From Haliotis rubra (Eukaryota): 64,000 bases of DNA. Below, in pieces: positions 14,321 to 60,053 of this stretch. Positions within the stretch are counted from its first letter, which is position 1, and the number at the start of each line of letters is the position of its first letter. The translations under genes were made by a program, and so were the position numbers. The DNA lies in assembly GCF_003918875.1 (NCBI RefSeq), contig NW_025767575.1:248001-312000 (forward strand). The letters are read 5' to 3'. The notes beneath the pieces are model-generated. The model was given only the letters and a program-made list of their open reading frames with translations. It was not told where the DNA came from and did not search any database.

Positions 14321-14555
14321 ACAGGTTTGTGTCAAATAACGGAGATATTTAACGTAACGCGTTTCATTTGGGATAACACTTTATCAGTAAAGTACAGACC
14401 AGTACATTTTGTGTTTGAGTCCACATTTGACCATTTTCTACATGCAGGTTTCAAATACATCATACCTCGAATTAGCCTCGCATTTTGCAAAATATATAAC
14501 TTTGGCAAAATGATATTTAGGAACTTCAGATAAAAATCGAAGTGCCATTCCTGTT

Positions 14556-15527
14556 GGCAACTGTCCTGTGGTGTGGACCATGGTATCTGTCCAGGGATTG
14601 TCCTGTGGTAATTGTCCTGTGGTGTGGACCATGGTATCTGTCCAGGGATTGTACTGTGGTAATTGTCCTGTGGTGTGGATCATGGTATCTGTCCAGGAAT
14701 TGGACTGTGGTAATTGTCCTGTGGTGTGGACCATGGTATCTGTCCAGGGATTGTCCTGTGGTAATTGTCCTGTGGTGTGGACCATGGTATCTGTCCAGGA
14801 ATTGGACTGTGGTAATTGTCCTGTGGTGTGGACCATGGTATCTGTCCAGGGATTGTCCTGTGGTAATTGTCTTGTGGTGTGGACCATGGTATCTGTCCAG
14901 GGATTGTCCTGTGGTAATTGTCTTGTGGTGTGGACCATGGTATCTGTCCAGGAATTGGACTGTGGTAATTGTCTTGTGGTGTGGACCATGGTATCTGTCC
15001 AGGGATTGTCCTGTGGTAATTGTCCTGTGGTGTGGACCATGGTATCTGTCCAGGAATTGGACTGTGGTAATTGTCCTGTGGTGTGGACCATGGTATCTCG
15101 TCCAGGGATTGTCCCTGTGGTAATTGTCTTGTGGTGTGGACAAGGTATCTGTCCAGGGATTGGACTCGTGGTAATTGTCCTGTGGTGTGGATCATGGTAT
15201 CTGTCCAGGGATTGTCCTGTGGTAATTGTCTTGTGGTGTGGACCATGGTATCTGTCCAGGAATTGGACTGTGGTAATTGTCCTGTGGTGTGGACCATGGT
15301 ATCTGTCCAGGGATTGTACTGTGGTAATTGTCCTGTGGTGTGGACTCATGGTATCTGTCCAGGAATTGGACTGTGGTAATTGTCCTGTGGTGTGGACCAT
15401 GGTATCTGTCCAGGGATTGTCCTGTGGTAATTGTCCTGTGGTGTGGACCATGGTATCTGTCCAGGAATTGGACTGTGGTAATTGTCCTGTGGCGTGGATC
15501 ATGGTATCTGTCCAGGGATTGGACTGT
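14556..15527. repeat. Minisatellite, 51-bp unit, ~19 copies
   Basis: GTGGTAATTGTCCTGTGGTGTGGACCATGGTATCTGTCCAGG... repeated; 17-aa periodicity in spurious ORFs. Confidence 0.95.
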
Positions 15528-15787
15528 TACCGACCGCGGCCATAGCTGGACCTTTATTGAGAGCGACGCGCACCACACACGGAGCACTTGTAAACACCGG
15601 ATACGGTCAATCAAACACAAGAGTCGTTCTTACGTCACTTCACTGTGTGTCTTTTGTTACAAGCCGTGATATATGTCGGCTTGAATTGTTTGACTATGTC
15701 GTGCTATGATTTGAATGAACTATGCATACTTAGATACATGTTGCAGCAACTCAGACGCATGTTTAATTAATGTATTAATCAGACAAA

Positions 15788-23520: not shown

Positions 23521-23751
23521 TTCGTGCCTCCAGGTGACCATGAGAAACATCAACTCCAGGAACATATAAAACAACGCCAGAGAGGAAACACATTTTGGCG
23601 AAGAAGGAAATACAAACAAGTGAATGTTCACCAGGTACGATCTTTAGGGATCCCTGTCCAACACACTTTTATAAACGTAACATATGTTATTTTGGGCCTT
23701 TTTATCATCATGCAATCATAGCTTTCGGACGTGGACGCTGTGTCAAGTTCC

Positions 23752-24625
23752 ACTTGTCAGGTGGATACACAAGCTACGTGAGCTGGACCACCACTTGTCA
23801 GGTGGATACACAAGCTACGTGAGCTGGACCACCACTTGTCAGGTGGATACACAAGCTACGTGAGCTGGACCACCACTTGTCAGGTGGATACATAAGCTAC
23901 GTGAGCTGGACCACCACTTGTCAGGTGGATACACAAGCTACGTGAGCTGGACCACCACTTGTCACGTGGATACATAAGCTACGTGAGCTGGACCACCACT
24001 TGTCAGGTGGATACACAAGCTACGTGAGCTGGACCACCACTTGTCAGGTGGATACACAAGCTACGTGAGCTGGACCACCACTTGTCACGTGGATACATAA
24101 GCTACGTGAGCTGGACCACCACTTGTCAGGTGGATACACAAGCTACGTGAGCTGGACCACCAGTTGTCAGGTGGATACACAAGCTACGTGAGCTGGACTA
24201 CCAGTTGTCAGGTGGATACACAAGCTACGTGAGCTGGACTACCAGTTGTCAGGTGGATACACAAGCTACGTGAGCTGGACTACCAGTTGTCAGGTGGATA
24301 CACAAGATATAGTGAGCTGGACTACCAGTTGTCAGGTGGATATACAAGCTACGTGAGCTCGACCACCACTTGTCAGGTGGATACATAAGATATAGTGAGC
24401 TGGACTACCAGTTGTCAGGTGGATACACAAGCTACGTGAGCTGGACTACCAGTTGTCAGGTGGATACACAAGATATAGTGAGCTGGACTACCAGTTGTCA
24501 GGTGGATACACAAGCTACGTGAGCTGGACTACCAGTTGTCAGGTGGATACACAAGATATAGTGAGCTGGACTACCAGTTGTCAGGTGGATACACAAGCTA
24601 CGTGAGCTCGAATACCAGTTGTCAG
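23752..24625. repeat. Minisatellite, 41-bp unit, ~21 copies
   Basis: ACTTGTCAGGTGGATACACAAGCTACGTGAGCTGGACCACC repeated. Confidence 0.95.
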
Positions 24626-36140: not shown

Positions 36141-36273
36141 ACTGTGTCAAAGCAAGAATGATTTCAGACGGGTTTGGGACTCGCTTTCATTGGTAGGGTT
36201 GTCACAATATGCACGTCAATTTTCCTTTTCACGAATGCCATACGGAATCTTTCACCACGTCAGTCTTTTTAGG

Positions 36274-36935
36274 TAGTGTGTCTAGTTGAACATGGGAGAC
36301 AGTGTGTCTAGTTGAACATGGGAGACAGTGTGTCTAGTTGAACATGGGAGACAGTGTGTCTAGTTGAACATGGGAGATAGTGTGTCTAGTTGAACATGGG
36401 AGACAGTGTGTTTACTTGAACATTGGAGACAGTGTGTCTAGTTGAACATGGGAGACAGTGTGTCTAGTTGAACATGGGAGACAGTGTGTCTAGTTGGGAA
36501 CATGTTGAACATGGGGAGTCTAGTTGTGACAGTGTGTCTAGTTGAACATGTCTAGTTGAACATGGGAGACAGTGTGTCTAGTTGGGAGATAGTGTGTCTA
36601 GTTGAACAGTTGGGAGACAGTGTGTCTAGTTGAACATGGGAGACAGTGTGTCTAGTTGAACATGAGAGACAGTGTGTCTAGTTGGACATGGGAGACAGTG
36701 TGTCTAGTTGAACATGGGAGATAGTGTGTCTAGTTGAACATGGGAGATAGTGTGTCTAGTTGAACATGGGAGATAGTGTGTCTAGTTGAACATGGGAGAC
36801 AGTGTGTCTAGTTGAACATGGGAGATAGTGTGTCTAGTTGAACATAGGAGATAGTGTGTCTAGTTGAACATTGGAGACTGTGTCTTTAGTTGAACATGGG
36901 AGATAGTTTGTGTAGTTGAACATGGGAGACGGTGT
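36274..36935. repeat. Minisatellite, 26-bp unit
   Basis: AGTGTGTCTAGTTGAACATGGGAGAC repeated. Confidence 0.95.
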
Positions 36936-36968
36936 ATTTACTTAAATATGAGCGTGTATCTAACATAA

Positions 36969-37705
36969 CAACGTTTGGTATGGATTTACAATTTCTCAAC
37001 TATTTACAACACGACGTTTCTGGGCTACTTCTTGCCCCTTCATTGAGTGAATGACAGAATATGATTTACAAGCAAGATATGTATTGTACGTACAGGAGGC
37101 AAGTGTGATGGAATTAAAGATTAAGATTACAGAGATCAGCTAGCTGGGTGTCGGCTACCAGAGACACCTTGTAGAAACCATCGTCAAGTCCACCGTTCAA
37201 CAACGAGATCAACCTCCAACTAAACCTGAACCATCCCCAATCTTCATTAACATTCCCTGTGCTGGATCCATGAGTCATTACATCAGAAAGCTGCCAGCAT
37301 TGACACAGCTATCTCATCTGGCAAACCCCTCAAATCTTTATTAAGAACCAGTGTTACGGAAGCCGCCAGACGACTCCTAATCCAAGACGGTGCGCATATT
37401 GAAATGCACACGTTGCTGCTCCTCATCGCTGTACTTCGTTAGTGGCTTCCAGTCAATGTATATCCTTTTCGTTGTATAAACACTCTGTACACATTTCATA
37501 AACATCTCAATCGACACATGTCACTTAATCTCACTTAATCTCCTTGATCTGTGTACATCTCAGTCTTTAATTCCACCTCAATGGCCTCCTGTACGTACTA
37601 TATGTGTTGCTTGTAAATCATTTACCCGATAAAGGGGCAAGAAGTAACCTGAAACGTCGTGTTGTAAATAGCAAAGAAGGTTGTAAATCCATACCATACG
37701 TTGTT
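36969..37705. mobile_element. Penelope-like remnant with ~170-bp inverted terminal (pLTR-like) repeats
   Basis: 36969-37138 is an imperfect reverse complement of 37545-37705; internal IFINIPCAGSMSHYIRKL linker motif. Confidence 0.65.
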
Positions 37706-38370: not shown

Positions 38371-39399
38371 AGTTTATGATGGGAAAATGTCATGGGAAAC
38401 AGTATTTCTAGTTTAACATATTAGATAGTGTGTTTCAAGTACCTTGTTGTATCGTCCCCTTGTTTGTGCCAAGTAGACCTGTCATGTGACATTGTAGAGA
38501 AGTAGTCAATCAGCTGTAAATAGTTCAAGTCATAGATCTACACTTATTGGTTCCTGGAATGACGGTCCAGCATGACATGGGATGTATAACTTCACATCGT
38601 TACATCATTACATCGTTACATCCGTTGTAGATGATGCAATCTTCTCCCTATTACGACATGATAAATGGATGCAACATTAAATGTGAAATATTGATGCAGA
38701 AGTAAACAAGCTATACTTGGACAAGACTGTTCATTCAAGATCCTAACTGCGAACTTGTACCACCTGATCATAGAATAATTTGTCGTAGGCGATATGCCTG
38801 GAAGTGTAGTTCTTATCTGAGTGCGGCATTTATTGAAAACAAATTGGCGTTTCCCACACAACAGTATCCGGCAGTATGGTTTATTCTTGGACAGAGGTAG
38901 TACTTAATAACTACAGGATCTAATCGCGGACGACCTTTGATACACAAGTCCTTCTCTCTGATGTAGGAGATGGGAGGAGAATGTCTCACTAGAATTTGAA
39001 CATATACGAACCAAATAACCCCGACAGTGGCAGGGCCAGTCTTACAGAATTACACACCAAGAAATGACTACACCAAACTGCACCAGTCCGAAACAGACGT
39101 AACAATGAAATGTATGCTGGCCATTAGCTGCCTGGCTCGGAGAGAGTGGGTTCGAATCCCGAATGGGACTCAGTCTAACAAAAGTACTAGAATCTCAAAT
39201 ATAGCATATGTTGCAATGAGCAACGATACATAGCAATGACTAACACAACTCACAAGAATTAATAATGACACAAGGTCTTTTTTATCGATTTTCATGTTGA
39301 ACGTGCATTTACAGGTTGAGTGAACATAGAACTTTTACTTGTCAGCTTCTGTTACTGCACGTTATAATATAACACGTGACGGCGTCATTATCGCATGGC

Positions 39400-40530
39400 A
39401 CACAGTGTAGTAACCAACACAATGTAGTAACCAACAAAGTGTAGTTACCAGCACAATATAGTACCCAGCACAATGTAGTAACCACCAGCACAATGTAGTA
39501 ACCAGCACAATGTAGTAACCACACAATGTAGTAACCAGCACAATGTAGTAACCAGCACAATGTAGTAACCAGCACAATGTAGTAACCAGCACAATGTAGT
39601 AACCAGCACAAAGTGCAAGTAACCAGCACAATGTAGTAGTAACCAGCATTAACCAGCACAATGTAGTAACCAACAACAACAGTGTAGTAACAATGTAGTA
39701 ACCAGCACAATGTAGTAACCAGCACAATGTAGTAACCAGCACAATGTAGTAACCAGCACAATGTAGTAACCAGCACAATGTAGTAACCAGCACAATGTAG
39801 TAACCAGCACAATGTAGTAACCAGCACAATGTAGTAACCAGCACAATGTAGTAACCAGCACAATGTAGTAACCAGCACAATGTAGTAACCAACACAGTGT
39901 AGTAACCAGCACAATGTAGTAACCAGCACAATGTAGTAACCAGCACAATGTAGTAACCAGCACAATGTAGTAACCAGCACAATGTAGTAACCAGCACAAT
40001 GTAGTAACCAGCACAATGTAGTAACCAGCACAATGTAGTAACCAACACAATGTAGTAACCAGCACAATGTAGTAACCAAGTAACCAACACAATGTAGTAA
40101 CCAGCACAATGTAGTAACCAACACAATGTAGTAACCAACACAATGTAGTAACCAGCACAATGTAGTAACCAGCACAATGTAGTAACCAGCACAATGTAGT
40201 AACCAGCACAATGTAGTAACCAGCACAATGTAGTAACCAACACAATGTAGTAACCAACCAGCACAACACAAGTAACCAAGCACAATGTAGTAACCAACAC
40301 AATGTAGTAACCAACACAATGTACACAATGTGGTAACCAACACAATGTAGTAACCAACACAATGTAGTAACAAATGTAGTAACCAACACAATGTAGTAAC
40401 CACACAATGTAGTAACCAAACACAATGTAGTAACCAATGTTGTAAGCACAATGTAGTAACCAACACAATGTAGTAACCAGCACAATGTAGTAACCAGCAC
40501 AATGTAGTAACCAGCACACTGTAGTACCAG
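39400..40530. repeat. Minisatellite, 17-bp unit
   Basis: CACAATGTAGTAACCAG repeated more than 55 times. Confidence 0.97.
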
Positions 40531-42660: not shown

Positions 42661-43649
42661 TCATAACCAGACCCGCAGTTCCTCGGTGTGTCTGAAATTT
42701 GAGAAAAACCATAAATGCGCTAGATGGAGATTTCATCAGATGGATCTAAATTGCACGAAATCAACATTGTCGTATCGGACTTAGCGTGATTCTTGTGTTG
42801 TCATGGTGATGAAGCCAACAAGTGAGGAGCGTCTGATAAGCATCCTTGTTTCCCCCACTGCGTGTTTACAGCTACTGAATATCGGCAGTGAAAATCCTCA
42901 CACCACCAAATGTGATCAACCAACATATGAAGGAATGACAGGTCTTAATGGATGATCAGCTTCTTTATTAACTGTGCAATACACGTAGATACTTGTACCG
43001 TTTTCAAGCTTCCCATTACTTACAACTTCTAGAATGCCTCTCAAACAGTTCACCATATGGAGCACTATAAGGGCGTGTTATAGTACGTATGTCTGTAAGA
43101 TATGCTGTAGTCATGTGGGGTGGGATGGGTAGTCCTTGTGTTGGATGTATAGGACCAATGGCTGGAGTATAGGAAGCAAGACCTATCTATCGGACCAATG
43201 ATCATGTTTATTTAGATCAAAGACTGTTGCTGTTGATCCATGAACTTGTGTATGATCAAAGGAATTCTATAAAGGAGCAGTAACCGTTGCATGTGATCAG
43301 TGGCGTGTGATCAAGACTGTTGAAAGATAAATGAAATTTACACAGGATGGATAACGCGCTAAAATCCCATTGTCAGCTAGAGAATAGCAGCACCAGAAGT
43401 CGGTGCCTATAGCCGATATATGACACTGTTGAAGGGTACTGAGAAAGAACTACCAAGGCGTTTAGAACGACTGACCCATGTGCTAGCAGGTCTTTCAGTA
43501 ATAACAGCCTGATACGAGTTGTGACGACACAGTGACCACGTGGCCGAGCATCAGTAAGGAGGCGGGGACCGATGGTATTGATGGTACATGAGAGTAGCCC
43601 GACACGGACTTACCGGCGGGACTGTACTTTTGTATGGAGACATGGTACT

Positions 43650-45080
43650 GCTGTAGACTTGCACGGAGATACGACGCTCTTGTAGACTAGTACGGAAATA
43701 TGCCACTCTTGTAGACTCTTGTAGACGTGCACGGAAATACAACACGCCTGTAGACTAGTACGGAAATATGCCGCTCTTGTAGTTTTGCACGGAGATGCGA
43801 CACTCTTGTAGACTAGCAAGGAGATACGGCACTTTTGTAGACGTGCACGGAAATACGCCGCTCTTGTAAACGTGCACGGAAATACGCCCCTCTTGCAGAA
43901 TAGCACGGGGATACACGGCCCTCTTGTAAACGTGCACGGAAATACGCCCCTCTTGCAGAATAGCACGGGGATACACGGCCCTCTTGTAAACGTGCACGGA
44001 AATACGCCCCTCTTGCAGAATAGCACGGGGATACACGGCCCTCTTGTAAACGTGCACGGGGAAATAAACGCACGGAAATACGCCCCTCTTGCAGAATAGC
44101 ACGGGGATACACGGCCCTCTTGTAAACGTGCGGAAATACGCCGCTCTTGTAAACGTGCACGGAAATACGCCGCTCTTGCAGAATAGCACGGGGATACACG
44201 GCCCTCTTGTAAACGTGCACGGAAATACGCCCCTCTTGCAGAATAGCACGGGGATACACGGCCCTCTTGTAAACGTGCACGGAAATACGCCGCTCTTGTA
44301 AACGTGCACGGAAATACGCCCCTCTTGCAGAATAGCACGGGGATACACGGCCCTCTTGTAAACGTGCACGGAAATACGCCCCTCTTGCAGAATAGCACGG
44401 GGATACACGGCCCTCTTTGTAAACGATGCACGGAAATACGCCGCTCTTGTAAACGTGCACGGAAATACGCCGCTCTTGCAGAATAGCACGGGGATACACG
44501 GCCCTCTTGTAAACGTGCACGGAAATACGCCCCTCTTGCAGAATAGCACGGGGATACACGGCCCTCTTGTAAACGTGCACGGAAATACGCCGCTCTTGTA
44601 AACGTGCACGGAAATACGCCCCTCTTGCAGAATAGCACGGGATACACGGCCCTCTTGTAAACGTGCACGGAAATACGCCCCTCTTGCAGAATAGCACGGG
44701 GATACGGCCCTCTTGTAAACGTGCACGGAAATACGCCGCTCTTGTAAACGTGCACGGAAATACGCCCCTCTTGCAGAATAGCACGGGGATACACGGCCCT
44801 CTTGTAAACGTGCACGGAAATACGCCCCTCTTGTAAACGTGCACGGAAATACGCCGCTCTTGCAGAATAGCACGGGGATACACGGCCCTGTTGTAAACGT
44901 GCACGGAAATACGCCCCTCTTGCAGAATAGCACGGGGATACACGGCCCTGTTGTAGACGTGCACGGAAATACGCCCCTCTTGCAGAATAGCACGGGGATA
45001 CACGGCCCTCTTGTAAACGTGCACGGAAATACGCCACTGTGTCGACGTGCACGGAGATACGGCACTCGTGTAGACAAGCA
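43650..45080. repeat. Minisatellite with 29-bp and 31-bp monomers forming 60-bp higher-order units
   Basis: CTCTTGTAAACGTGCACGGAAATACGCCC alternating with CTCTTGCAGAATAGCACGGGGATACACGGCC. Confidence 0.95.
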
Positions 45081-46030
45081 CGGACGGAATACGTACACAG
45101 GTAGGTGGCTCTACAATGTCTCTTAATTCAGTGATGACATACAGTGTTTGGCAGGAGGAGTGGCCAGGCTCTCGGGGCTGTATTCTAATGGCGTAATTTC
45201 TGTCTCTGGCAAAATCACAGGTAATGTGCATTAAACTATTTTTTCTAAACATTATGTTACTGGTGGAAAATATGATATCCTCCGTATGTAAGCCCGGTGT
45301 TTTATACGGGAGAAATGGCAGTCTCATCAACGGTATGGTCCAGTAATATTCTCTGCCACCTTCAGGAAATGTCAAGTATTTTTTGACGAACTAAACCTCT
45401 TTTAAAATGCTTGCAGTCGGCTCTTTATGATAATACATGTATAATGAAATTAGAGAAAGCTGCATTTTACACATTTGATGATTTTAGATAAAATTACGCA
45501 TTTGAGAAAAAGACACTTTAAATTGTGATTCTTTAAAAACTGATGACTTCGACCAATTCGGTCAGAGATTCCCAATTGATATGCATTGAGAACAATACCG
45601 AACTCAAAATCGCGTGCAGTTTCACATATAGGTTAAAGAAAGTAACGGATTCACAATAAAATAGGTGTCACAATTATTGCTATCTTATACCATTAGTGAG
45701 ATTGTAAATAGTCTAACATTGTAACATATACATCTGACTGAGATTTGCATTATAGTCCGTTTGAAGCGGACCGATGAATTGCTATCTAACTCGAAAAATG
45801 GAACAGCCAGGTGTACGCGAAGCACGTGCACAATTCAACAAAGTTATTGATTCATTTACCCGTGCTGTGCCGTCTCAATCCTTCCTCGCACACCTGGCTG
45901 TTCCTCTCTTGAACTCCTCCCTCGTAACAAATAGTGAACTGGGTCAATACTTTAATGATAGTTTGTTAAACAACCTTATTATTTTTAGGACATAAATTCT
46001 ACAAAAAACCCACAGAGTTGGTCTTATGTT

Positions 46031-46429
46031 AGTAGTGTACAGCGTCACCCTGGGGTATTTTTCAAGATGGCGGCATATCCGGCGTGTGCGTGCGCATCGC
46101 GATGGCGTCACTTCCGGTTCCGGCGTGCGCGCGCATCCCGATGATATCACCTCCGGCCAAGATGGACGCCCTGTTCAAGATGGCGGCCCATCCGGTGGGA
46201 TCTCGCGGGGTCTCGTGGGATCTCGCGGAGTCTCGCGGGATCTCGCGAGAGTGGACACAATTCAAGATGGCGGACGGACGGAACGGACGGGAAGGAGAGA
46301 GGGAGGGAGGGAGGGAGGGAGAGTGGTGAGAGGACGATGGCGTGTCTAGAGAAGTGTGTGGTTCAAGCTTTGTCACTCAGGTTTTCTTTCGAGCCGGATG
46401 GGTGGCCCTGAAAAGAGCCGTTGGCATGG
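46031..46429 (+). repeat. Left terminal inverted repeat of the Polinton-like element
   Basis: Reverse complement of 53366-53740 apart from one divergent internal block. Confidence 0.93.
46383..46424 (-). terminator. Histone-mRNA-type 3' stem-loop plus HDE-like element in the left TIR
   Basis: Minus strand CCAAC-GGCTCTTTTCAGGGCC-ACCCA-TCCGGCTC-GAAAGAAA; hairpin at 46404-46419. Confidence 0.85.
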
Positions 46430-46439
46430 CAAGGCATGT

Positions 46440-46893
46440 TTAACACCGGCATAGCAGATCAAGGCCTCGGAAGATAAATTTCCCTGGGCAGACATCATCA
46501 TGTAGGTGGTGCGCTCCCTTCCTGATCCCTTCCCCACAGTAGACACACGTAAAACACGGAGCTCCTGGGACTACATCGAAGCGATTGGAGGGAAAGGCTT
46601 TGAAGCAGGTAGGGCCATTTTGACGACCATTTTGGTAGGCTTTCAGATGTAGCTGCCGTTGGTGGTGGTGGTCGGGCTACCGTTTCTGCTGACGTTGTTG
46701 GTGGTGGGGCTGCCGCTGCTTCTGCTGCCGTTGTCGGTATCAGTACCGGTTCTGATGCTGTTGTACCCTCTTCCATTTTGATACCGGTCTTCACTTGCAA
46801 GCTTGGGCTACATCGTAGACATTGCTTTCTACCGCAGTTATTTCGGTAAGGTGTTGGTAGGATGACTTCAACTCGTCTGTGTCCATGTTGCAT
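46440..46893 (-). pseudogene. Element terminal gene: Thr/Pro/Ala-rich region and a probable frameshifted C-terminal C2HC zinc finger
   Basis: ORF 46498-46893 downstream of TATA at 46924-46931; the adjacent frame reads CVYCGEGIRKGAHHLHDDVC and stops at 46440-46442. Confidence 0.45.
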
Positions 46894-47021
46894 CGAGATA
46901 GCCCTTACTTACAAATGCTGGAGTTTATATAGGCGACGAGACATCGATGACGTGTCGTCGATGACGTGGCACTGATGACGTCATGGTCGCACGTGAGGGT
47001 GGTGACGTGGCACCGGTGACG

Positions 47022-47312
47022 TCATGGTCGAGCGTGAGGCGTTGGCGCCGCCATGGCCTTTGATTGGCTGATTGTTTGCAAAAGTGTTCTAGTGGGTGCT
47101 GTGGGGTACAACTGCTTTAAGGAAGGTCTTTGTTTGGAGGAGGAAGCAGAGGGAGGAGCACTTAGCCTTTCGTACAACCGTTGCACACCCGATCCATGTT
47201 GTTTGGTGGGATCACGACCCATGGTGGTCAGGAGTGTTTTACGGATCGGTTTAAACAACCCTGTGGCAACAACACGTTTGCGGGGCCGGGCCTGTTTCCG
47301 TCTGTCTCTCAT
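47022..47312 (-). CDS. Small basic (Arg/Lys-rich) protein of unknown function, element-encoded
   Basis: 96-aa ORF MRDRRKQARPRKR...; upstream ATAAATA and TCAGTT initiator-like motif. Confidence 0.45.
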   Translation of the reverse strand: MRDRRKQARPRKRVVATGLFKPIRKTLLTTMGRDPTKQHGSGVQRLYERLSAPPSASSSKQRPSLKQLYPTAPTRTLLQTISQSKAMAAPTPHARP

Positions 47313-47778
47313 GACAGCTCTGGGTCAACTGATGGTAGGGTAGACGGTCGGCTCTATTTATCACTACTTGGGAATGTAAACGGTGGTGGGGTTGCAAAAG
47401 AGATGAATACGTACACAGTGCTCTTTGGCCGTGGTAGGTTTCAAGTCCAGGAACAAATAGGAATAAGAGCCAAAGTGGCATCCTCATAGGCTTCCCGAAG
47501 GAACATGGTAAAGGGATGACGTAACGTGAGTGGGGTGACCATGGCCTCCACCAGGTCTGTCCCTGACATAGTCCCTGACATAGTCTCTGACATAGTGTCC
47601 TGACAGACGTCTTACCATCCTGCAAGTTACACCGGAAATTACCTCCAAGAGCTAAGATCCTTAAAGATATAGAAGACCCAACCCATTGAAATTGAATTTA
47701 CATTTCAGTGATGAACAAAACAGGTTATGAATGAACAATAATGCATCAACACTACATCAACAACAGTACATCAACAGA

Positions 47779-48900
47779 TCACCACCTGTTCAGGTGATCC
47801 TGAGGATTGCAGGTACAACAAGGCAAGAATTCCATTTGTCCTGCATGAAAATGATTTTCATCGTTAAACATGGGGATGTCGATGATGGCCTCTGGCTCCT
47901 CTGGAGTCATCACTGAAGTCATCACCAGATCCGTCTGCAGAGTCATCACTGGAGTCGTCTCAGGAGCCACCACTGGAGCCGACTGCTCTGTTTCCGTTGT
48001 GACAGGCATCGGGAGTAGATCATACAGTTGTTGAAGATCTGGAGGTAACTCGTCATGGGGCTAGCAGGACTGATCCCTTGACCCTTCTTGCTCTCTTCAA
48101 CAATAGCACGGCTGGCTTGTTGATCGTTCTCCCACAAAGCCATCAACTGTTTCTTGGGAGTCCTTGGTGCTTTGAGACTCTTAGGCTTTCGGGGTGCCTT
48201 GGCGATTGTTTTAGTGGGTGTCTTGGGAAGGGGTACCTTCTTGGTGGAGACCTTGGTGGGGGCCTTCTTCTTCTTCTTCTTCTTCTTCTTTGGAGAAGTC
48301 TTGGCAGGAGTGGCCTGGGGTGGGGGTGGGGGTGTTGGGCGTCATGTCTGTGACCTCTGGATCGTTGGAGAACAAGGGTAGAGTGCAGGTGGCACGTTGA
48401 AGATCGTAGCTGGGCGGGTAAGCCCAGAGTTTCACCTGGAGTTTGTCCAGCAGCTTGATATAGGACGACCATTCCTCAGACTTGAATACGATGTGTAACA
48501 GCTTGCTGAGGTAAGTCTCCCCTGCATTTTCCTTGGCATGTGCATTGTCGATACCCATGAGTACCAAGGGAACAGAGTTGGTGGCGCTGTCGGAGAGGAG
48601 CTGTAAGAGGTCTTGGTGATAAGACATCCAGTTATAATCTTCCTCAGTCAACTCACAGAAGCGACCCATCAACCCATACAGTGTCTCTGTTTCAGGATGA
48701 ATAACCTCCAGCTTGCTAATGATCGACGGTAACTTTTGTTCCATCACTCGGATCTGGTCCTGGAGATCCATGTGGTTGGTCTTGTACAACTGGTTTTGAG
48801 CCATCATGTTGTTGTGGAGATTGGCGATGTCAGAAGCCAGGTCCTTTGCTTGCGAATTCATGTTGACGAAAGTAGAAGGGAGGTTGCCTGGAAATGCCAT
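47779..48900 (-). pseudogene. Element gene: N-terminal helical/coiled-coil region, Lys/Pro-rich H1-tail-like region, acidic Thr-rich end; probable frameshifts
   Basis: MAFPGNLP... from 48900; after the C-run near 48320 another frame reads TPAKTSPKKKKKKKKKAPTKVSTKKVPLPKTPTK...RTPKKQLMALWEND; TATA at 49030-49039. Confidence 0.55.
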
Positions 48901-49078
48901 CTTTAGACTTAGTTGGTGCAACTGATGACCCACTCGACTGATCCTGCGTATCTCTCTTCTAGATACGTTGCTACCACAAAGAGCAGCGTGAACAACATGA
49001 CTACGAATAACGATTTGGCCAGAAACGCCTATATATATACACACAGAGTGGTGTCACGTGGGTCGTCCATGGATGACG

Positions 49079-49366
49079 TCACTGAGTCTCGAGACCCAGT
49101 AATGTCATGGCTTCTGTCTCTCCACATTCCTCCAAAGCTTTGCAGAAGAGGGAGTAAGCTCTGGGTCCACGTCTGGGAAGCATATCTAACAATTCTCTGA
49201 CACAGTCAAAGGATGTTCGAGGTTTTTCGATAATCTCTGCCTTCATGAAGATGGTAAGGACTTTAAACTCCATCAGTTTGTCGACCACAGCCTCGAGCTG
49301 CTTGATATCTAGCACGAGGGCGGAACGATTCTCCCTAAGCCTATCGCGGTGAATGGGTTCGATCAT
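49079..49366 (-). CDS. CARD-only protein (caspase-2/RAIDD-like CARD)
   Basis: Intact 95-aa ORF with CARD pattern HR..L..NR..LV...VVD.L....VLT..M..EI....T....RELLD.LP.RGP.AY..FC.AL.E.G; own TATA and two TGACGTCA upstream. Confidence 0.85.
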   Translation of the reverse strand: MIEPIHRDRLRENRSALVLDIKQLEAVVDKLMEFKVLTIFMKAEIIEKPRTSFDCVRELLDMLPRRGPRAYSLFCKALEECGETEAMTLLGLETQ

Positions 49367-49799
49367 TTTCTTTCTTAGATAATAGACTCTGGCAGAAACT
49401 CCTCTCTATATACACAGGGTCGTGATGACGTCATAGGGTGTGTGTGACGTCATGGGTGACCATGGCATCCACCACGTCTGATCCTAACAGGATAAAAAAA
49501 AGGGTTGAGGGTGACCATGGACTCCACCAGGTCTGGCCCCTGAACAGAGACGACTCAACACATTTCATTTGAAATAACATTGAATGGATGAACAATGCAA
49601 ACATGGTATCGCTTAAACATCATTAGATCAACAGTACATTTACAGAGCATGTCATGGGGTACAATAAAAGTCCATTTGTTTTTTTTATTCCCCATTCAAA
49701 AAACCCTTAGGGGGCATAAGCAGGAGGGGCCACCCCTTCAGGTCCATAGGACTGATAGTAGAACTGATGGCACTCCATCTTTGGCTGAGTCTCGGGCGT

Positions 49800-50280
49800 C
49801 ATGGTCGTGACCACTGAATCATAGGTTGGCGGCTTAAAAACTTTGTCAGTGATAAGAAGTCCTCATTGATGGGCTCTAAGTCCCACACTTGATTTCCCGG
49901 AACCTCGGAGGGGAATCCAAATATTCTGTCACTATGATGTTGTAATTGCCGATGATAGAAGGCAACTCCCTTGGCCAGGAGAAAGAAGGGAGGTCGTCTC
50001 GGGATGTGTTCTCTGGATCTTAGAATTCAGGCTTACAGACGACGTAACTGATACAAAAGTCCTCTTCGAAGATGCCCAAGTCCTTCACCTGATAATGCTC
50101 TTCCTGGAGGATTTCAAGGAGCCGCTCAGTGGCTGTATCCGATGTATCGAGGTATTCTGTCACCAAGATCTTGTGCTGATTGTTGATGAGAGAATCCTTG
50201 TACTTCTGTACTGCTTGCCAAACAATGGTGTAGGTAGGAGAGGAACAAGAAGAAAAAAAGGGTTTGCCTGGAGATGTCAT
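49800..50280 (-). pseudogene. Element gene of unknown function with an internally duplicated motif; premature stop
   Basis: ILVTEYLD...VKDLGIFEEDF then, past the stop at 50020, IIVTEYLD...VWDLEPINEDF; TATA at 50332-50338; minus-strand AATAAA near 49685. Confidence 0.5.
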
Positions 50281-50398
50281 CTTCAACGGCTGAGCTGGTG
50301 CGACTGATGACCCACTTGACTAATTCTGAGGTTTTATAGGCAGCAACAGCAGCGCGAGCTATGACGTCACTTCAAATCGCGTCACGATTTTTTTGGGT

Positions 50399-52552
50399 TC
50401 ACTCTTTATAGCCATAGGGGAGAGTTTCCACGGGGACTTCTTGTGGGTCGTACTGGACTCGACCTTTGGTGTAGACCATTCGATACTCTTTGGTGGTGTC
50501 GTTGGACAGCAACGCATTGCCCTGGCGAAGTCCTCCGCGAATGATGCGGTGCGAGTATGGGACAGTGATGCTGACTTGATCCCTCTGACAGACGAGGTTC
50601 TTTATGTTGTCAAAGTGGACATGTTGTCGCCCTGTGATTCAGAGTAAATCCTCGGACTTTGCTGATGCCTACACTACCGTCAGGTTGAGGATGGCGCAGC
50701 TTGTAGGTGTAGTTCTTGGGTCCTCTCGAGACAAAGGCGTGAATGCTGTTGCCCCCTCCCAGTTCATCGGTCAGCTCCCCTAAGGTATCTCCCAGTGGAG
50801 GGTTCTAGCTTAGTGCACGGTGAATGTAGATGATACTGTATGTATCAAAATAGAGTACGCGTCGATCCAAGGGTTTCAAGTAGGAATACAGCTTGAGATG
50901 GGCTTATGCTGTCACCCAGGCTGCAATGACCACATTGTGGGCGGGATGCGTGTCGTGAAATTCTGACTTAGGTTCGTAAGTGACACACACGAGGGCCTCG
51001 TTGACGAAGTGCACATCCTTTACCACACACCGTTCATCCCGGAGGAGGGCAAAGAACCTCTCAGGGGAACTGTATTCGGTCTTGTCAAACCTGACGCTTT
51101 GGCCAAACTTGCCTCAATGGTTGTTCAGGCAAGCTTTAGCTAGGGCACGTAGTCCTGGGTTTTTGCGGATGTGAGCAGGATCCAAGGTGACTCCTTCTTT
51201 TCATGAATCTCCCTGATGTAGGCGTCTGGGTCTGAACAGCCTTCTGGAAATCCGCTGGCCTCTTGCTTGATCTTGAAGAAATTGTTCACATACTTGGCAA
51301 ACAGTCCTCCCTCTTGAGAGTCAGGGTCGTAGGTGGTGAGCGTGTCAAAGTGGCAAGCCTCAAAGACGTGAAGCACTTGATAGCCGCACTCTCGAACGGC
51401 ATACTGAAGCTCCTTGCTGACATACGTGCCGATCCATGCTCGGTCTTCATCCCTGTGGGGGCAGGAACCAGCCAACACAGCACGACACAGAGAAAATAAC
51501 AACTTGCTCTGGACGCGGTTAGGAAGAACAGGATGGTAGAGGTCGGTGGGTTGTAAGACTCGGCACTGGATGAGGCCATGTAACTCGAACAAGTCAGCCA
51601 TGGGATGATGATCTTTGATCTCGGGATGACCCACGGGGTAAGTACCATACTTGCACATGTAAGGGTACAGTGAACAAACGTCCACATATTTCATTTCTTC
51701 ATCTTCTTTCGCTCCGTAGTACAACTTGGTGGCGTTTGTGCGTCCTCCAAAGAAGGCATCTCTGGGATCCAACGGTTCAGGCATGTAGTCATGAGGTCCT
51801 TGCAGTGTGGTCAGGAACGCTCTCAGATCAGCGTTGTCTTTCTGTTCTTTCCGAAAATCACATTTCCACAGGGTCACCACTTGGTGGATGTCAGAATGTT
51901 GGCGTAACACCACCAGTCGGTACCTTGTATGATGGTATCATTCCCAAGGTGCTGTACCCATGGTACTGTGGGGTTCACATCGACCTGTCTTGTAACAGTG
52001 AGTACATCCATGACCAGGGCAGGGGCAAAGCAGAGTTGATCATCATTCTTGATTTGTAAGATGCATTGTTTCTTTTCCAGGAAAGTGTTTAAGCCAATGA
52101 TGTACCTTGGCCGTCCATGTCCCTTGCCTACACGATCAGGATCTTCTACATGCAGTTAGTATATATCCATGGTCTCACCGATATACAAGTCGTGGTTACT
52201 TTGCTGTACTTTTTCCACTTTGGCCATGATGCGTTCCCCCCTGGAGGTCACCCATCTGCTGACATGTGATTGGGATGTCTGAATCCAGGGCTGGATGTTT
52301 CAGGGCCAATCCCACGCGATCATCATCCTGGCCGTTCATATTGTTTCTCAGGTCTAACAAGACAGCATCAAACTGCTCTCTGAGAATGACGGGGAGGTCT
52401 TCAGGTTGTTGATGCTGCAACCAAGCTGGACTGAACTTCAGCTTATAGCGATGAGTGTTGCTCCGGAACTTCTTCTGTGTAAGTAGGGACGTTGGCTCCG
52501 ACCAGTAAAGTTCTTCTTCTTCCTCTGCTTTGTTCATTCGTGGTGACTGCAT
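50399..52552 (-). pseudogene. Protein-primed family B DNA polymerase (Polinton-type), internally deleted and disrupted
   Basis: LDPRDAFFGGRT, YVDVCSLYP, YPVGHP, KIKQEASGFP, GKFGQ, YFDTYS (for YxDTDS), LGELTDE, GPKNY, KVRGF, terminal TLPYGY; N-terminal domain at 52196-52552. Confidence 0.92.
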
Positions 52553-52585
52553 GGTGAGAATTGACAAGACCCACACTGAGCCTGG

Positions 52586-52791
52586 TTTATATAGACAACG
52601 TCACCCTATGACGTCACAATAGGTCGTCCTAAGCGTGGCAGTGCGCATCACAAGCTCATTTGGTGTTGAATGACGTCACAAGTTTTTCTCTCATGGGCAT
52701 GCCCTAGGACGTTACACTAGTCTGTCGACCCATGAAACGAGAATGTAAGGCGATTCGCGCCAAAGTGACGTCATCGACTCCAGCTATAAAA
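52586..52791. promoter_or_regulatory. Divergent promoter for PolB and the zinc-knuckle gene: two TATA boxes, three TGACGTCA, one E2F-type site
   Basis: TTTATATA 52586-52593 (minus), TGACGTCA at 52609, 52671, 52766, TTCGCGCCAAA 52754-52764, TATAAAA 52785-52791. Confidence 0.7.
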
Positions 52792-52841
52792 ACTCGAGGT
52801 TTTCCAGCTCTCCCCATTAGTTGCTCACTGAAACTGGAAGC

Positions 52842-53341
52842 ATGCAGTCGTCTCCCGCCTCCGCCTCCTTCCGTTGCCGCCTGTGCGAAACAGATGACCA
52901 CAGTTATCTGCACTGTCCCAAGGTGACCTGTACCGAGTGTGGTGCTCAAGGCCATCGTCATTACGTATGTCCCAAGAAGGCCACGGACAGTAACAAGCAC
53001 GATAACAACACCTGCTACAACTGCGGACAAAAAACGAAGGCCATCTCAGTTACGACTGTCCACATCCCAGCCGCCACTGTGGTAAAGAGGACCATAAGAG
53101 TATGACCTGCACCTACAAGACCCAGAAACGTGCGGCTCCCGTCAACCAGTCAGCTCAACCAACAAAGAAAGTGGGTAAACATGAAGACAATCGTCTACTG
53201 GCTCTACTCCATGACAAGGTCATCCTCGTTGAAGACCGTATAGACACCGTGCACTCTCTACTTCAATGTGTCTTGGAGTTTGTTGAACCCATGGACGATT
53301 CCAGCAGCACCGCCTCGAGTGGACCACCATCACCACAATAG
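52842..53341 (+). pseudogene. Multi-CCHC zinc-knuckle protein (nucleocapsid/CNBP-like) with C-terminal helical segment; one frameshift near 53030
   Basis: CRLCETDDHSYLHC, CTECGAQGHRHYVC, CYNCGQ/EGHLSYDC, degenerate RHCGKEDHKSMTC; joins the 53102-53341 frame. Confidence 0.8.
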
Positions 53342-53365
53342 ATACCTCGGTGATGTCTCACCCAC

Positions 53366-53740
53366 CCATACCAACGGCCCTTTTCAGGGCCACCCATCCC
53401 AGATCGAAAGAAAACCTGAGTGACAAAGCTTGAACCACACACTTCTCTAGACACGCCATCGTCCTCTCACCACTCTCCCTCCCTCCCTCCCTCTCCTTCC
53501 CGTCCGTTCCGTCCGTCCGCCATCTTGAATTGTGTCCACTCTCGCGAGATCCCGCGAGACTCCGCGAGATCCCACCGGATGGGCCGCCATCTTGAACAGG
53601 GCGTCCTTCTTGGCCCGCACACGCCGAAACCGGAAGCACCGGAACCAGAACCCGAGTAACCTCCCCTTATCGGAAGTGATGCCATCTTGGGTCACGTGAC
53701 CCATCTTGAAAAAGACCCCAGGGTGACGCTGTACACTACT
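53366..53740 (-). repeat. Right terminal inverted repeat of the Polinton-like element
   Basis: Reverse complement of the left TIR; ends ACTACT followed by the TSD. Confidence 0.93.
53371..53414 (+). terminator. Histone-mRNA-type 3' stem-loop plus HDE-like element in the right TIR
   Basis: CCAAC-GGCCCTTTTCAGGGCC-ACCCA-TCCCAGATC-GAAAGAAAA; hairpin at 53376-53391, 34 nt after the stop at 53341. Confidence 0.88.
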
Positions 53741-54019
53741 TATGTTTTTATTAGGATAGGCGTTTCATTGAGTATTATATGTGTATTAGTTTTCGAGTTA
53801 GATTGCAATTCATCAGTTCGCTTTAAGCCAAAGGGACTATACTTGTTTTGAATTATATATTTGAATGACGGACGTGCAGCGCCTAATGTTCTCTCACTTT
53901 TACGTAAACATACTATTCCAAAAAGGAAACGCATAACCCAGAAATCTGTTGCGAAAAGGTTGCATTTTCAAACATGTATATCTCGTCCACAAATATACTT
54001 TAAGAAATGAATTTTTACA

Positions 54020-58879: not shown

Positions 58880-60053
58880 CCAGAAATTATTGAGAATTTT
58901 AGGAATATGTTTAATTGAATTTCTAGTATAAACAACCTTGACCAGCTATCAAGTGCTTGGTTTCATTCAAGAGAGACAACTCCGTTAATCCTTTTTTCAT
59001 TAGTTTGTGAAGAGTTATCAAACTCTGTTTACTTGCTAGCAGACGACATTTTCAGTGATCCTCAGTATGGATGATTTAGAGAAGAGGAAGTTGATTTTAG
59101 AGTATTATAACAATGACATCAGATCAGGTAAAGTGATTTCAAGTAGAACAGGCATCCCTTTGTCCACTGTTTATCGTGTTTTGAAAAATATTGCAAATGG
59201 ATATGGCATTGAGCACCAGGGAGGCGCAGGTAGGCCCAGAAAATTGACTGTCGGTGACAGGACTCGGCTTGGTATTCTTGTTTCTAAAAACAAACGAAGG
59301 AGTTTAGAAAACGTAAGGCTGGATATGATTGATAGAGGTACTGTGGCTGTCTGTAAGGAGACAATTAGAACTGAGCTGCATGCAATGGGTTGGCAGAAAA
59401 GTCGAGGAATTCCATCACCGATCATGAAACCTGAACAAAAGGAGCGAATGTTGAACTGGTGCTTACAGCATAGAAATTTTAACTGGGACAATGTGAAATT
59501 CTCAGATGAAAGTTCTGTGTGGCTGTTTCCTAATACACTGAAATTCTGCACCAAACAAACTGAAAAACCTTTGTATCAGCGCCCAAAGTACAGTCCGAAA
59601 TTTAACGTGTGTGGTGGCATATCTGTGTTAGGGACAACGCCTCTCTGTGTATTTGAAGGTAATATGAACAGTGAGCGGTACGCAGATATTCTCGAGGGAC
59701 ATTTACTTCCATCTGCTCACGTGTTCTATGGTAAAAAAATTATTTTCCAGCAGGACAACGACCCAAAAGTGTCAATAAGAAAAATTTGACAAATATTGCT
59801 GAAATGAAAGAAGAGGTGGTCCGATATTGGGACAGTATGGACCACGACTTTCTAACTTCTTTGATCAGTAGTATGCCCCGCCGCATTGAAGCCTGCATTG
59901 CTGCCCATGGTGACTTGACAAAATACTAACTGTTCACCTGTCTTTGAATCTGGAGTTATGTTCTGCTAATATTCACATTTAATACGTGAGTAATGAGTGA
60001 AAAAAAGAAAAGAATTACATTCTTAAATTCTCAATAATTTCTGGTTGTACTGT
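58880..60053 (+). mobile_element. Tc1/mariner DNA transposon, internally deleted
   Basis: TIR CCAGAAATTATTGAGAATTT.AGGAAT versus ATTCTTAAATTCTCAATAATTTCTGG; transposase ORF inside. Confidence 0.9.
59055..59928 (+). pseudogene. Tc1-family transposase lacking the SPDLNPIE segment
   Basis: HTH, GRPRKLT, FSDES, FQQDNDPK, then out-of-frame C-terminus SMPRRIEACIAAHGDLTKY*. Confidence 0.9.

Follow-up and report, generated by a model that had tools for sequence, protein, structure and literature searches.

We identified a small gene encoding a single CARD inside a defective Polinton/Maverick element in a 64,000-nt stretch of Haliotis rubra DNA (the window). We judge it moderately likely that this gene, P0001, is the front part of a CARD-PC4-PC4 family gene that was cut by a rearrangement at a second copy of its promoter and that it is now a passenger of the defective element. 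This reading is based on the position of the stop codon, which overlaps a duplicated promoter box, and on the close relatives of P0001, most of which continue from the CARD directly into PC4-like sequence.

The CARD gene and the element that carries it

The ORF of P0001 (49079..49366, minus strand) runs from 49366 to 49079 for 95 codons without interruption, followed by a stop codon. Residues 8 to 89 match the Pfam CARD profile PF00619 (E value, 7.8e-15; 55 bits with a cut-off of 23.9); the domain is complete and is the only one that Pfam detects in this copy. The pattern LLD.LP.RGP.A...FC.AL is present at residues 59 to 78. An AlphaFold model built from an alignment of 11 sequences has a pLDDT of 86.9 and folds as a helical bundle with the six-helix death fold. 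In a fold search of the PDB with this model, CARDs came out on top, with those of Apaf-1 and caspase-9 at a TM score of ~0.8, and CARD filaments and ICEBERG were also among the matches; the best E value was 1.7e-3, and none was at or below 1e-3. These data bear out the original prediction, made from the DNA letters, of an intact 95-aa single-CARD ORF with this pattern, and the profile match on which that prediction hinged was found. CpG depletion was alike in the CARD (0.73), the element (0.67), and the left flank (0.69) and did not separate them. The sole minus-strand AATAAA of the element is located at 49689, and the poly(A) test did not discriminate.

Based on its ends, TIRs, TSD, and a pPolB remnant, the 7,710-bp element around the CARD gene (46031..53740; no strand assigned) was classified as a Polinton/Maverick derivative. 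It opens with AGTAGT, closes with ACTACT, and is flanked by a TSD of TATGTT on the left (46025..46030, plus strand) and on the right (53741..53746, plus strand). Comparison of the two arms defined a left TIR at 46031..46429 (plus strand) and a right TIR at 53366..53740 (minus strand). The outer 40 bp of the arms are 97.5% identical, and the inner ~275 bp are 88% identical and differ mainly by indels of repeat units, while an unlike stretch of ~85 nt lies between these two parts (46070-46154 versus 53616-53700). The TIR similarity suggests that the insertion may be fairly young. Both TIRs carry YY1-like and ETS-like motifs.

A shortened remnant of pPolB is located at 50399..52552 on the minus strand (PF03175; E value, 5e-17) and contains several stop codons and frameshifts; its motifs are scattered over three frames with seven to eight breaks, as counted by eye without a reference. 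The element has 60 stop-free stretches of at least 60 aa, the longest being at most 280 aa, and 21 of these were chosen for a Pfam scan. No match to an integrase, ATPase, protease, or major or minor capsid protein was found in these 21 stretches. Because these matches are absent and pPolB is broken, we conclude that the element is a non-autonomous derivative. Thus, the ends, the TIRs, the TSD, and the PF03175 match confirm the Polinton-like element that had been proposed, and the claim that genes next to the CARD gene are disrupted holds for pPolB.

Several smaller ORFs share the element with the CARD gene and pPolB. A 131-aa ORF (46498..46893, minus strand) is preceded by two TGACGTCA boxes and a TATA box and has no Pfam match. 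The 86-aa ORF at 50020..50280 (minus strand) has its own TGACGTCA/TATA module and a 5' end paralogous to that of a 229-aa ORF (48211..48900, minus strand), for which we obtained no Pfam match above the cut-off and a weak Atlas lead to DUF4806 (0.90). On the plus strand, a zinc-knuckle-like ORF spread over two frames (52842..53341) has a zf-CCHC match below the cut-off, with TGACGTCA and TATA motifs upstream. Judging from the reading frames, the 229-aa ORF may be the first part of a larger, disrupted gene that extends to ~47779; the frames downstream of it contain a lysine-rich stretch and a Cys/His tail. At 47779..47920 (minus strand), a Cys/His motif resembles the C-terminal end of CARD-PC4-PC4 proteins (profile positions 127-166; E value in the window, 0.005; 9 of 18 residues identical to the family tail with a pairwise E value of 6e-5), a weak match that is located 1.2 kb downstream of the CARD and has no accompanying PC4.

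When the stretch is divided into 30 bins, contigs of four runs cover 28 to 30 of them and show many variants; a subset of the contigs joins both flanks and skips the whole element. These flank-to-flank joints support that the element sits in a host repeat of which element-free copies exist. The host repeat is present in high copy, has 37-nt inverted arms at 45761-45797 and 53790-53826, and is probably a small non-autonomous DNA transposon.

Promoter modules and the stop codon of the CARD gene

The CARD gene is preceded by a promoter-like module (49370..49452, minus strand) in which the TGACGTCA motif is matched twice (49426-49433 and 49445-49452) and a TATA box lies 46 nt ahead of the ATG; together, the motifs span 46 to 86 nt upstream of the gene. 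We take the TGACGTCA palindromes to be CRE-type. Nine TGACGTCA boxes are present in the element, where 0.12 would be expected, versus none in the remaining 56 kb. From 46900 to 52800, the palindromes mostly occur together with a TATA box in front of genes and represent an element-wide promoter style. Because the same promoter type precedes most genes of the element, including the broken pPolB, the promoter of the CARD gene is not a special sign. The gene therefore has a promoter-like module of its own, as had been claimed, but of a type that is common to its neighbors.

P0001 terminates one residue beyond a conserved LET motif, i.e., where the continuations of its relatives begin. Its stop codon, TGA, coincides with the start of a TGACGTCA box at 49074-49081, which is part of a second CARD-type promoter module identified by alignment (49000..49085, minus strand). 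The 85 nt starting at the stop codon are a paralogue of the promoter upstream of the CARD gene itself, and the alignment score of the two copies, 57, was equalled in none of 500 shuffles. This location of the stop codon inside a duplicated promoter box suggests that the site is a likely rearrangement junction. In run X8, 13 of the contigs listed part ways with the window at 49084, where the CARD ends, and no PC4 domain was found in the window using a profile of the PC4 part. The stop codon at the LET end, the promoter paralogue, the X8 breakpoint, and the window devoid of PC4 fit a rearrangement that severed the CARD from its partner. To account for the common breakpoint, we also considered an intron behind the LET motif, which need not be invoked; the residue following the motif varies, and in the relative P0007 the linker begins in the same way.

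Further cassette parts are duplicated within the element (47533-47790 versus 49454-49650 and 48870-48946 versus 50250-50328), and a motif beginning GGGTGACCATGG is present three times within its paralogous parts. Based on the duplicated cassette parts, the element has been rearranged, and the paralogy between intergenic and between 5' parts of the cassettes suggests an old internal duplication.

The CARD-PC4 family and the question of selection

The 22 close relatives of P0001 that we analyzed are predicted gene models, mostly from Haliotis and mainly from two species, with many near-duplicates; every close relative that carries a species name is a Haliotis protein, in keeping with an abalone host. 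Using the profile of the PC4 part, we found that the CARD continues directly into PC4-like sequence in 17 of the 22, including P0167, in which the match is limited to the first 21 positions. Full CARD-PC4-PC4-Cys/His proteins of 268 to 270 aa account for 9 of the 22 relatives. In two relatives (P0008 and P0161), the CARD is fused to a single BIR domain; two others (P0002 and P0007) have tails of 36 to 39 residues after the CARD, which are similar to each other and occur in two species; and one relative is a 69-aa fragment. None of the 22 ends at the stop point of P0001, and a stand-alone CARD is thus not conserved across the family. The CARD-PC4-PC4-Cys/His members P0004, P0006, and P0162-P0169 are mostly annotated as "uncharacterized." P0002, P0007, and P0167 are annotated as "caspase-2-like," yet they have no protease domain; our analysis suggests that these abalone models belong to the CARD family and may be element cargo rather than caspases of the host.

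PC4-PC4-Cys/His proteins without a CARD also exist (P0156-P0158 and L002), and L002:1-240 represents an intronless, CARD-less PC4-PC4 gene with a ~27-nt repeat array ahead of it. Genes for 10 proteins in H. rubra, including the CARD-deleted P0155, are located on 10 different contigs, and those in H. asinina are located on at least 4 contigs. In the structural model of P0004, residues 101 to 240 have a beta4-alpha-linker-beta4-alpha arrangement with a pLDDT of mostly 70 to 93, while the CARD and the tail are of low confidence. The PC4 part of this model matches human PC4 (TM score, 0.88 over the target), MRP1/2, and PURA. Mollusca and Preplasmiviricota are listed for the Atlas clusters that resemble the PC4 part, which we regard as a lead only.

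Scanning of viral contigs for CARD loci returned one short match of 44% (L001), which has no CARD according to the clade profile, and scanning of metagenome contigs returned none. The viral contigs also gave no match to the PC4 protein, the PC4 alignment, or the pPolB piece. Among the metagenome contigs, the PC4 alignment identified at least 64 loci, which are short and contain distant PC4 relatives; no match to the CARD or to any element stretch was detected in the 64 loci listed. The matches in 80 selected stretches from 23 of these 64 short loci were to PC4, a single piece of an RT, two pieces of transposases, and a zinc finger; no Polinton core gene was found.

An intact CARD frame among broken genes had been put forward as a possible sign of selection. 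At the density of breaks in pPolB (6 to 7 per 2,154 nt), however, the probability of finding no break in 288 nt is 0.39 to 0.45, and the intact frame is therefore within chance and no evidence of selection. P0001 retains 43 of the 46 columns that are invariant in 14 other family CARDs, and its three private differences tie for the most among the 15 sequences (others, zero to three). Of the 22 relatives, 17 continue into PC4 and none ends where P0001 ends, and the stop codon of P0001 is supplied by a promoter box. The original prediction that P0001 is a CARD-only decoy, possibly maintained by selection, is therefore unsupported as regards a dedicated decoy under selection.

These observations bear on an alternative that we regard as possible but doubtful, namely, that the CARD-only gene is a maintained gene of a Polinton subfamily, either ancestral or derived, whose product acts as a free-standing decoy for the initiator caspases of the host in the manner of ranavirus vCARD. 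The whole domain, the start context, the promoter, and the retained invariant columns are compatible with such a gene, as are the further short forms P0002 and P0007, with their similar tails, and P0167. Moreover, the CARD-BIR relatives point to cell-death control, and GIV-CARD is reported to block apoptosis (PMC4457926). Among the contigs listed, the spacer behind the CARD stop codon (place 49002) is present in eight contigs in run X2 and nine in run X4 versus none in runs X8 and X11; in X2 and X4, no loose end is located at the end of the CARD, and none of the listed contigs bridges the junction. Based on these spacer contigs, the CARD-only layout may represent a multi-copy subfamily in the organisms of X2 and X4. 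Also, because the root of the family clade is unplaced and P0001 is among the more divergent members (66 to 76% identity to the full-length relatives), the CARD-only form could be the older state. Nevertheless, the relatives and the borrowed stop codon argue against a maintained CARD-only gene, as do the intact frame expected by chance, the broken neighbors with the same promoter type, and the private differences of P0001. We therefore favor the reading of P0001 as a severed front part.

Origin, possible role, and known counterparts of the CARD

In a quick-search tree of CARDs (151 rows and 91 columns), the majority of whose forks are open, the 11 family CARDs, i.e., P0001 and 10 relatives, form one clade among the 151 (SH-aLRT, 99; stem, 0.64). 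This clade sits in an open fork, and the tree places neither its root nor the donor family. When the clade profile was compared to 143 host-type proteins, caspases had five of the eight best scores; one top match is named caspase-2-like, and the sequence matches to host-type proteins reach ~48% identity. Judged by sequence likeness, the CARD of the family likely came from a host caspase prodomain. The closest relatives of P0001 are abalone proteins, with 54 to 81% identity, and not iridovirus CARDs, for which the matches have 24 to 26% identity. The suggested likeness to caspase-2 and RAIDD is thus retained in part: the best host-type CARDs are mostly caspase prodomains, but the phylogeny against host CARDs that had been proposed as a check, while yielding one well-supported clade, leaves the donor open. 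Similarly, of the suggested capture of an intronless host domain, we recovered a real CARD that is intronless in this copy and has host-type matches, but not the dedicated CARD-only form.

In the explanation that we favor, the family would have acquired its CARD in a single event from a caspase-type prodomain of the host, and the CARD-PC4 genes would themselves be Polinton accessory genes. The role of the tandem PC4 repeat would be to bind single-stranded or melted DNA from protein-primed replication; that of the CARD would be to occupy the CARDs of host caspases or adaptors and to dampen damage-triggered cell death, with the PC4 fusion placing this decoy on the single-stranded replication DNA of the element. 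In the window, a rearrangement would have joined the CARD to the second promoter copy, the TGACGTCA box of which would supply the stop codon. P0001 could act as a free decoy if it is expressed; most likely, it rides along as a passenger. That the most probable role of the family CARD would be to occupy caspase or adaptor CARDs of the host is suggested by the donor type, the CARD-BIR relatives, the Bcl2 and IAP homologues that adintoviruses are reported to carry (PMC8502044), and GIV-CARD. An anti-death role, as originally predicted, fits the family to the extent that it fits the two CARD-BIR relatives and the adintovirus reports, but not as that of a dedicated decoy. If CARD-PC4 proteins work in the way outlined here, element replication would be linked to host caspase control in molluscs.

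A broader version, which we consider rather unlikely, is that abalone Polintons use the captured caspase-type CARD as a swappable module, joined to PC4-PC4, joined to BIR, or alone, the PC4 form being a DNA-tethered decoy and the CARD-only forms being kept as free decoys. If true, this would represent a hitherto undescribed silencing of DNA-damage cell death by a transposon-like virus in an invertebrate germ line.

Alternatively, the CARD could be a self-assembly module that polymerizes PC4 units on the ssDNA of the element, in which case a lone CARD would be inert or interfering. The tandem PC4-type fusion is the commonest form, PC4-like domains are reported to multimerize on unwound DNA (PMC7549692), the fold matches include CARD filaments, and the long clade stem reflects divergence from host CARDs. 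However, the existence of PC4-PC4-Cys/His proteins without a CARD and the fusion of the family CARD to BIR, an apoptosis domain, make this idea improbable. Finally, we give little credence to CARD-PC4 being a domesticated host family, e.g., an ssDNA sensor recruiting caspases, of which the element took the first part only: near-identical H. asinina copies, possibly on one contig, are compatible with a tandem cluster, and a Polinton context was seen for none of the relatives in the viral and short metagenome loci scanned, but the H. rubra copies are spread over many contigs with deleted and truncated forms, CARD-PC4 proteins with a species name are limited to two species of Haliotis, and the promoter of the CARD gene is of the type used by the element's own genes.

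Returning to P0001 as a severed front part, we compared the gene and its element to known systems. Mavericks have been described as having an (AGT)2//(ACT)2 end motif and a 6-bp TSD, with intact vertebrate copies of 12.7 to 24.6 kb (PMC8097293, PMC8502044). The window element resembles Polinton/Mavericks and adintoviruses, as portrayed in these accounts, in its (AGT)2//(ACT)2 ends, TIRs, 6-bp TSD, pPolB, and small accessory ORFs; it is unlike them in its length of 7.7 kb, its broken pPolB, and the absence of an integrase, ATPase, protease, or capsid gene among the stretches scanned. The main text of the adintovirus paper (PMC8502044), accessory-gene supplementary figures aside, mentions no CARD or PC4 gene. 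As in ranavirus/iridovirus vCARDs, including GIV-CARD with its reported 91 aa (PMC4457926), a single CARD of ~90 to 95 aa is present on a DNA-virus-type element, and the CARD protein of cod iridovirus is the best viral fold match to P0001 (TM score, 0.80). In contrast to these proteins, P0001, with an identity of only 24% to the viral match (E value, 6e-3), falls into an abalone clade of its own that consists mostly of fusions.

Among host proteins, mollusc caspase-2-like prodomains and RAIDD-type CARD-Death adaptors are the best host-type matches and share a C-terminal helix motif with P0001, whereas P0001 has no protease or death domain and is on a long-stem clade. The type I PC4-like arrangement is described as a nucleic-acid-binding fold family including Pur-alpha and MRP1 (PMC7549692). 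According to the structural model, the C-terminal part of the relatives would share the beta4-alpha-linker-beta4-alpha arrangement with PC4/Sub1, Pur-alpha, and MRP1. Unlike in PC4/Sub1, the PC4 of the relatives sits behind a CARD and is followed by a Cys/His tail, and it is absent from P0001. Human ICEBERG and CARD16/COP each have a lone CARD that stems from a longer protein, caspase-1, much as P0001 likely stems from a CARD-PC4 gene; they are host genes, in contrast to P0001, which is located in a mobile element. Polinton anti-death cargo and lone viral CARDs are both already known. In the literature covered, i.e., mostly open papers, Repbase and supplements aside, we found neither a CARD on a Polinton nor a fusion of a CARD to PC4. 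The value of these observations lies in the family to which P0001 points and not in P0001 itself, which is probably a shortened passenger.

Elsewhere in the window, a remnant of a Tc1/mariner-type transposase is located at 59067-59789 on the plus strand (HTH_Tnp_Tc3_2; E value, 2.5e-6, below the cut-off). Minisatellites are present at 14453-15628 (51-nt unit), 23627-24391 (41-nt unit), 36171-37022 (26-nt unit), 39383-40190 (17-nt unit), 43622-45100 (29/31-nt unit), and from 60497 onwards (25-nt unit).
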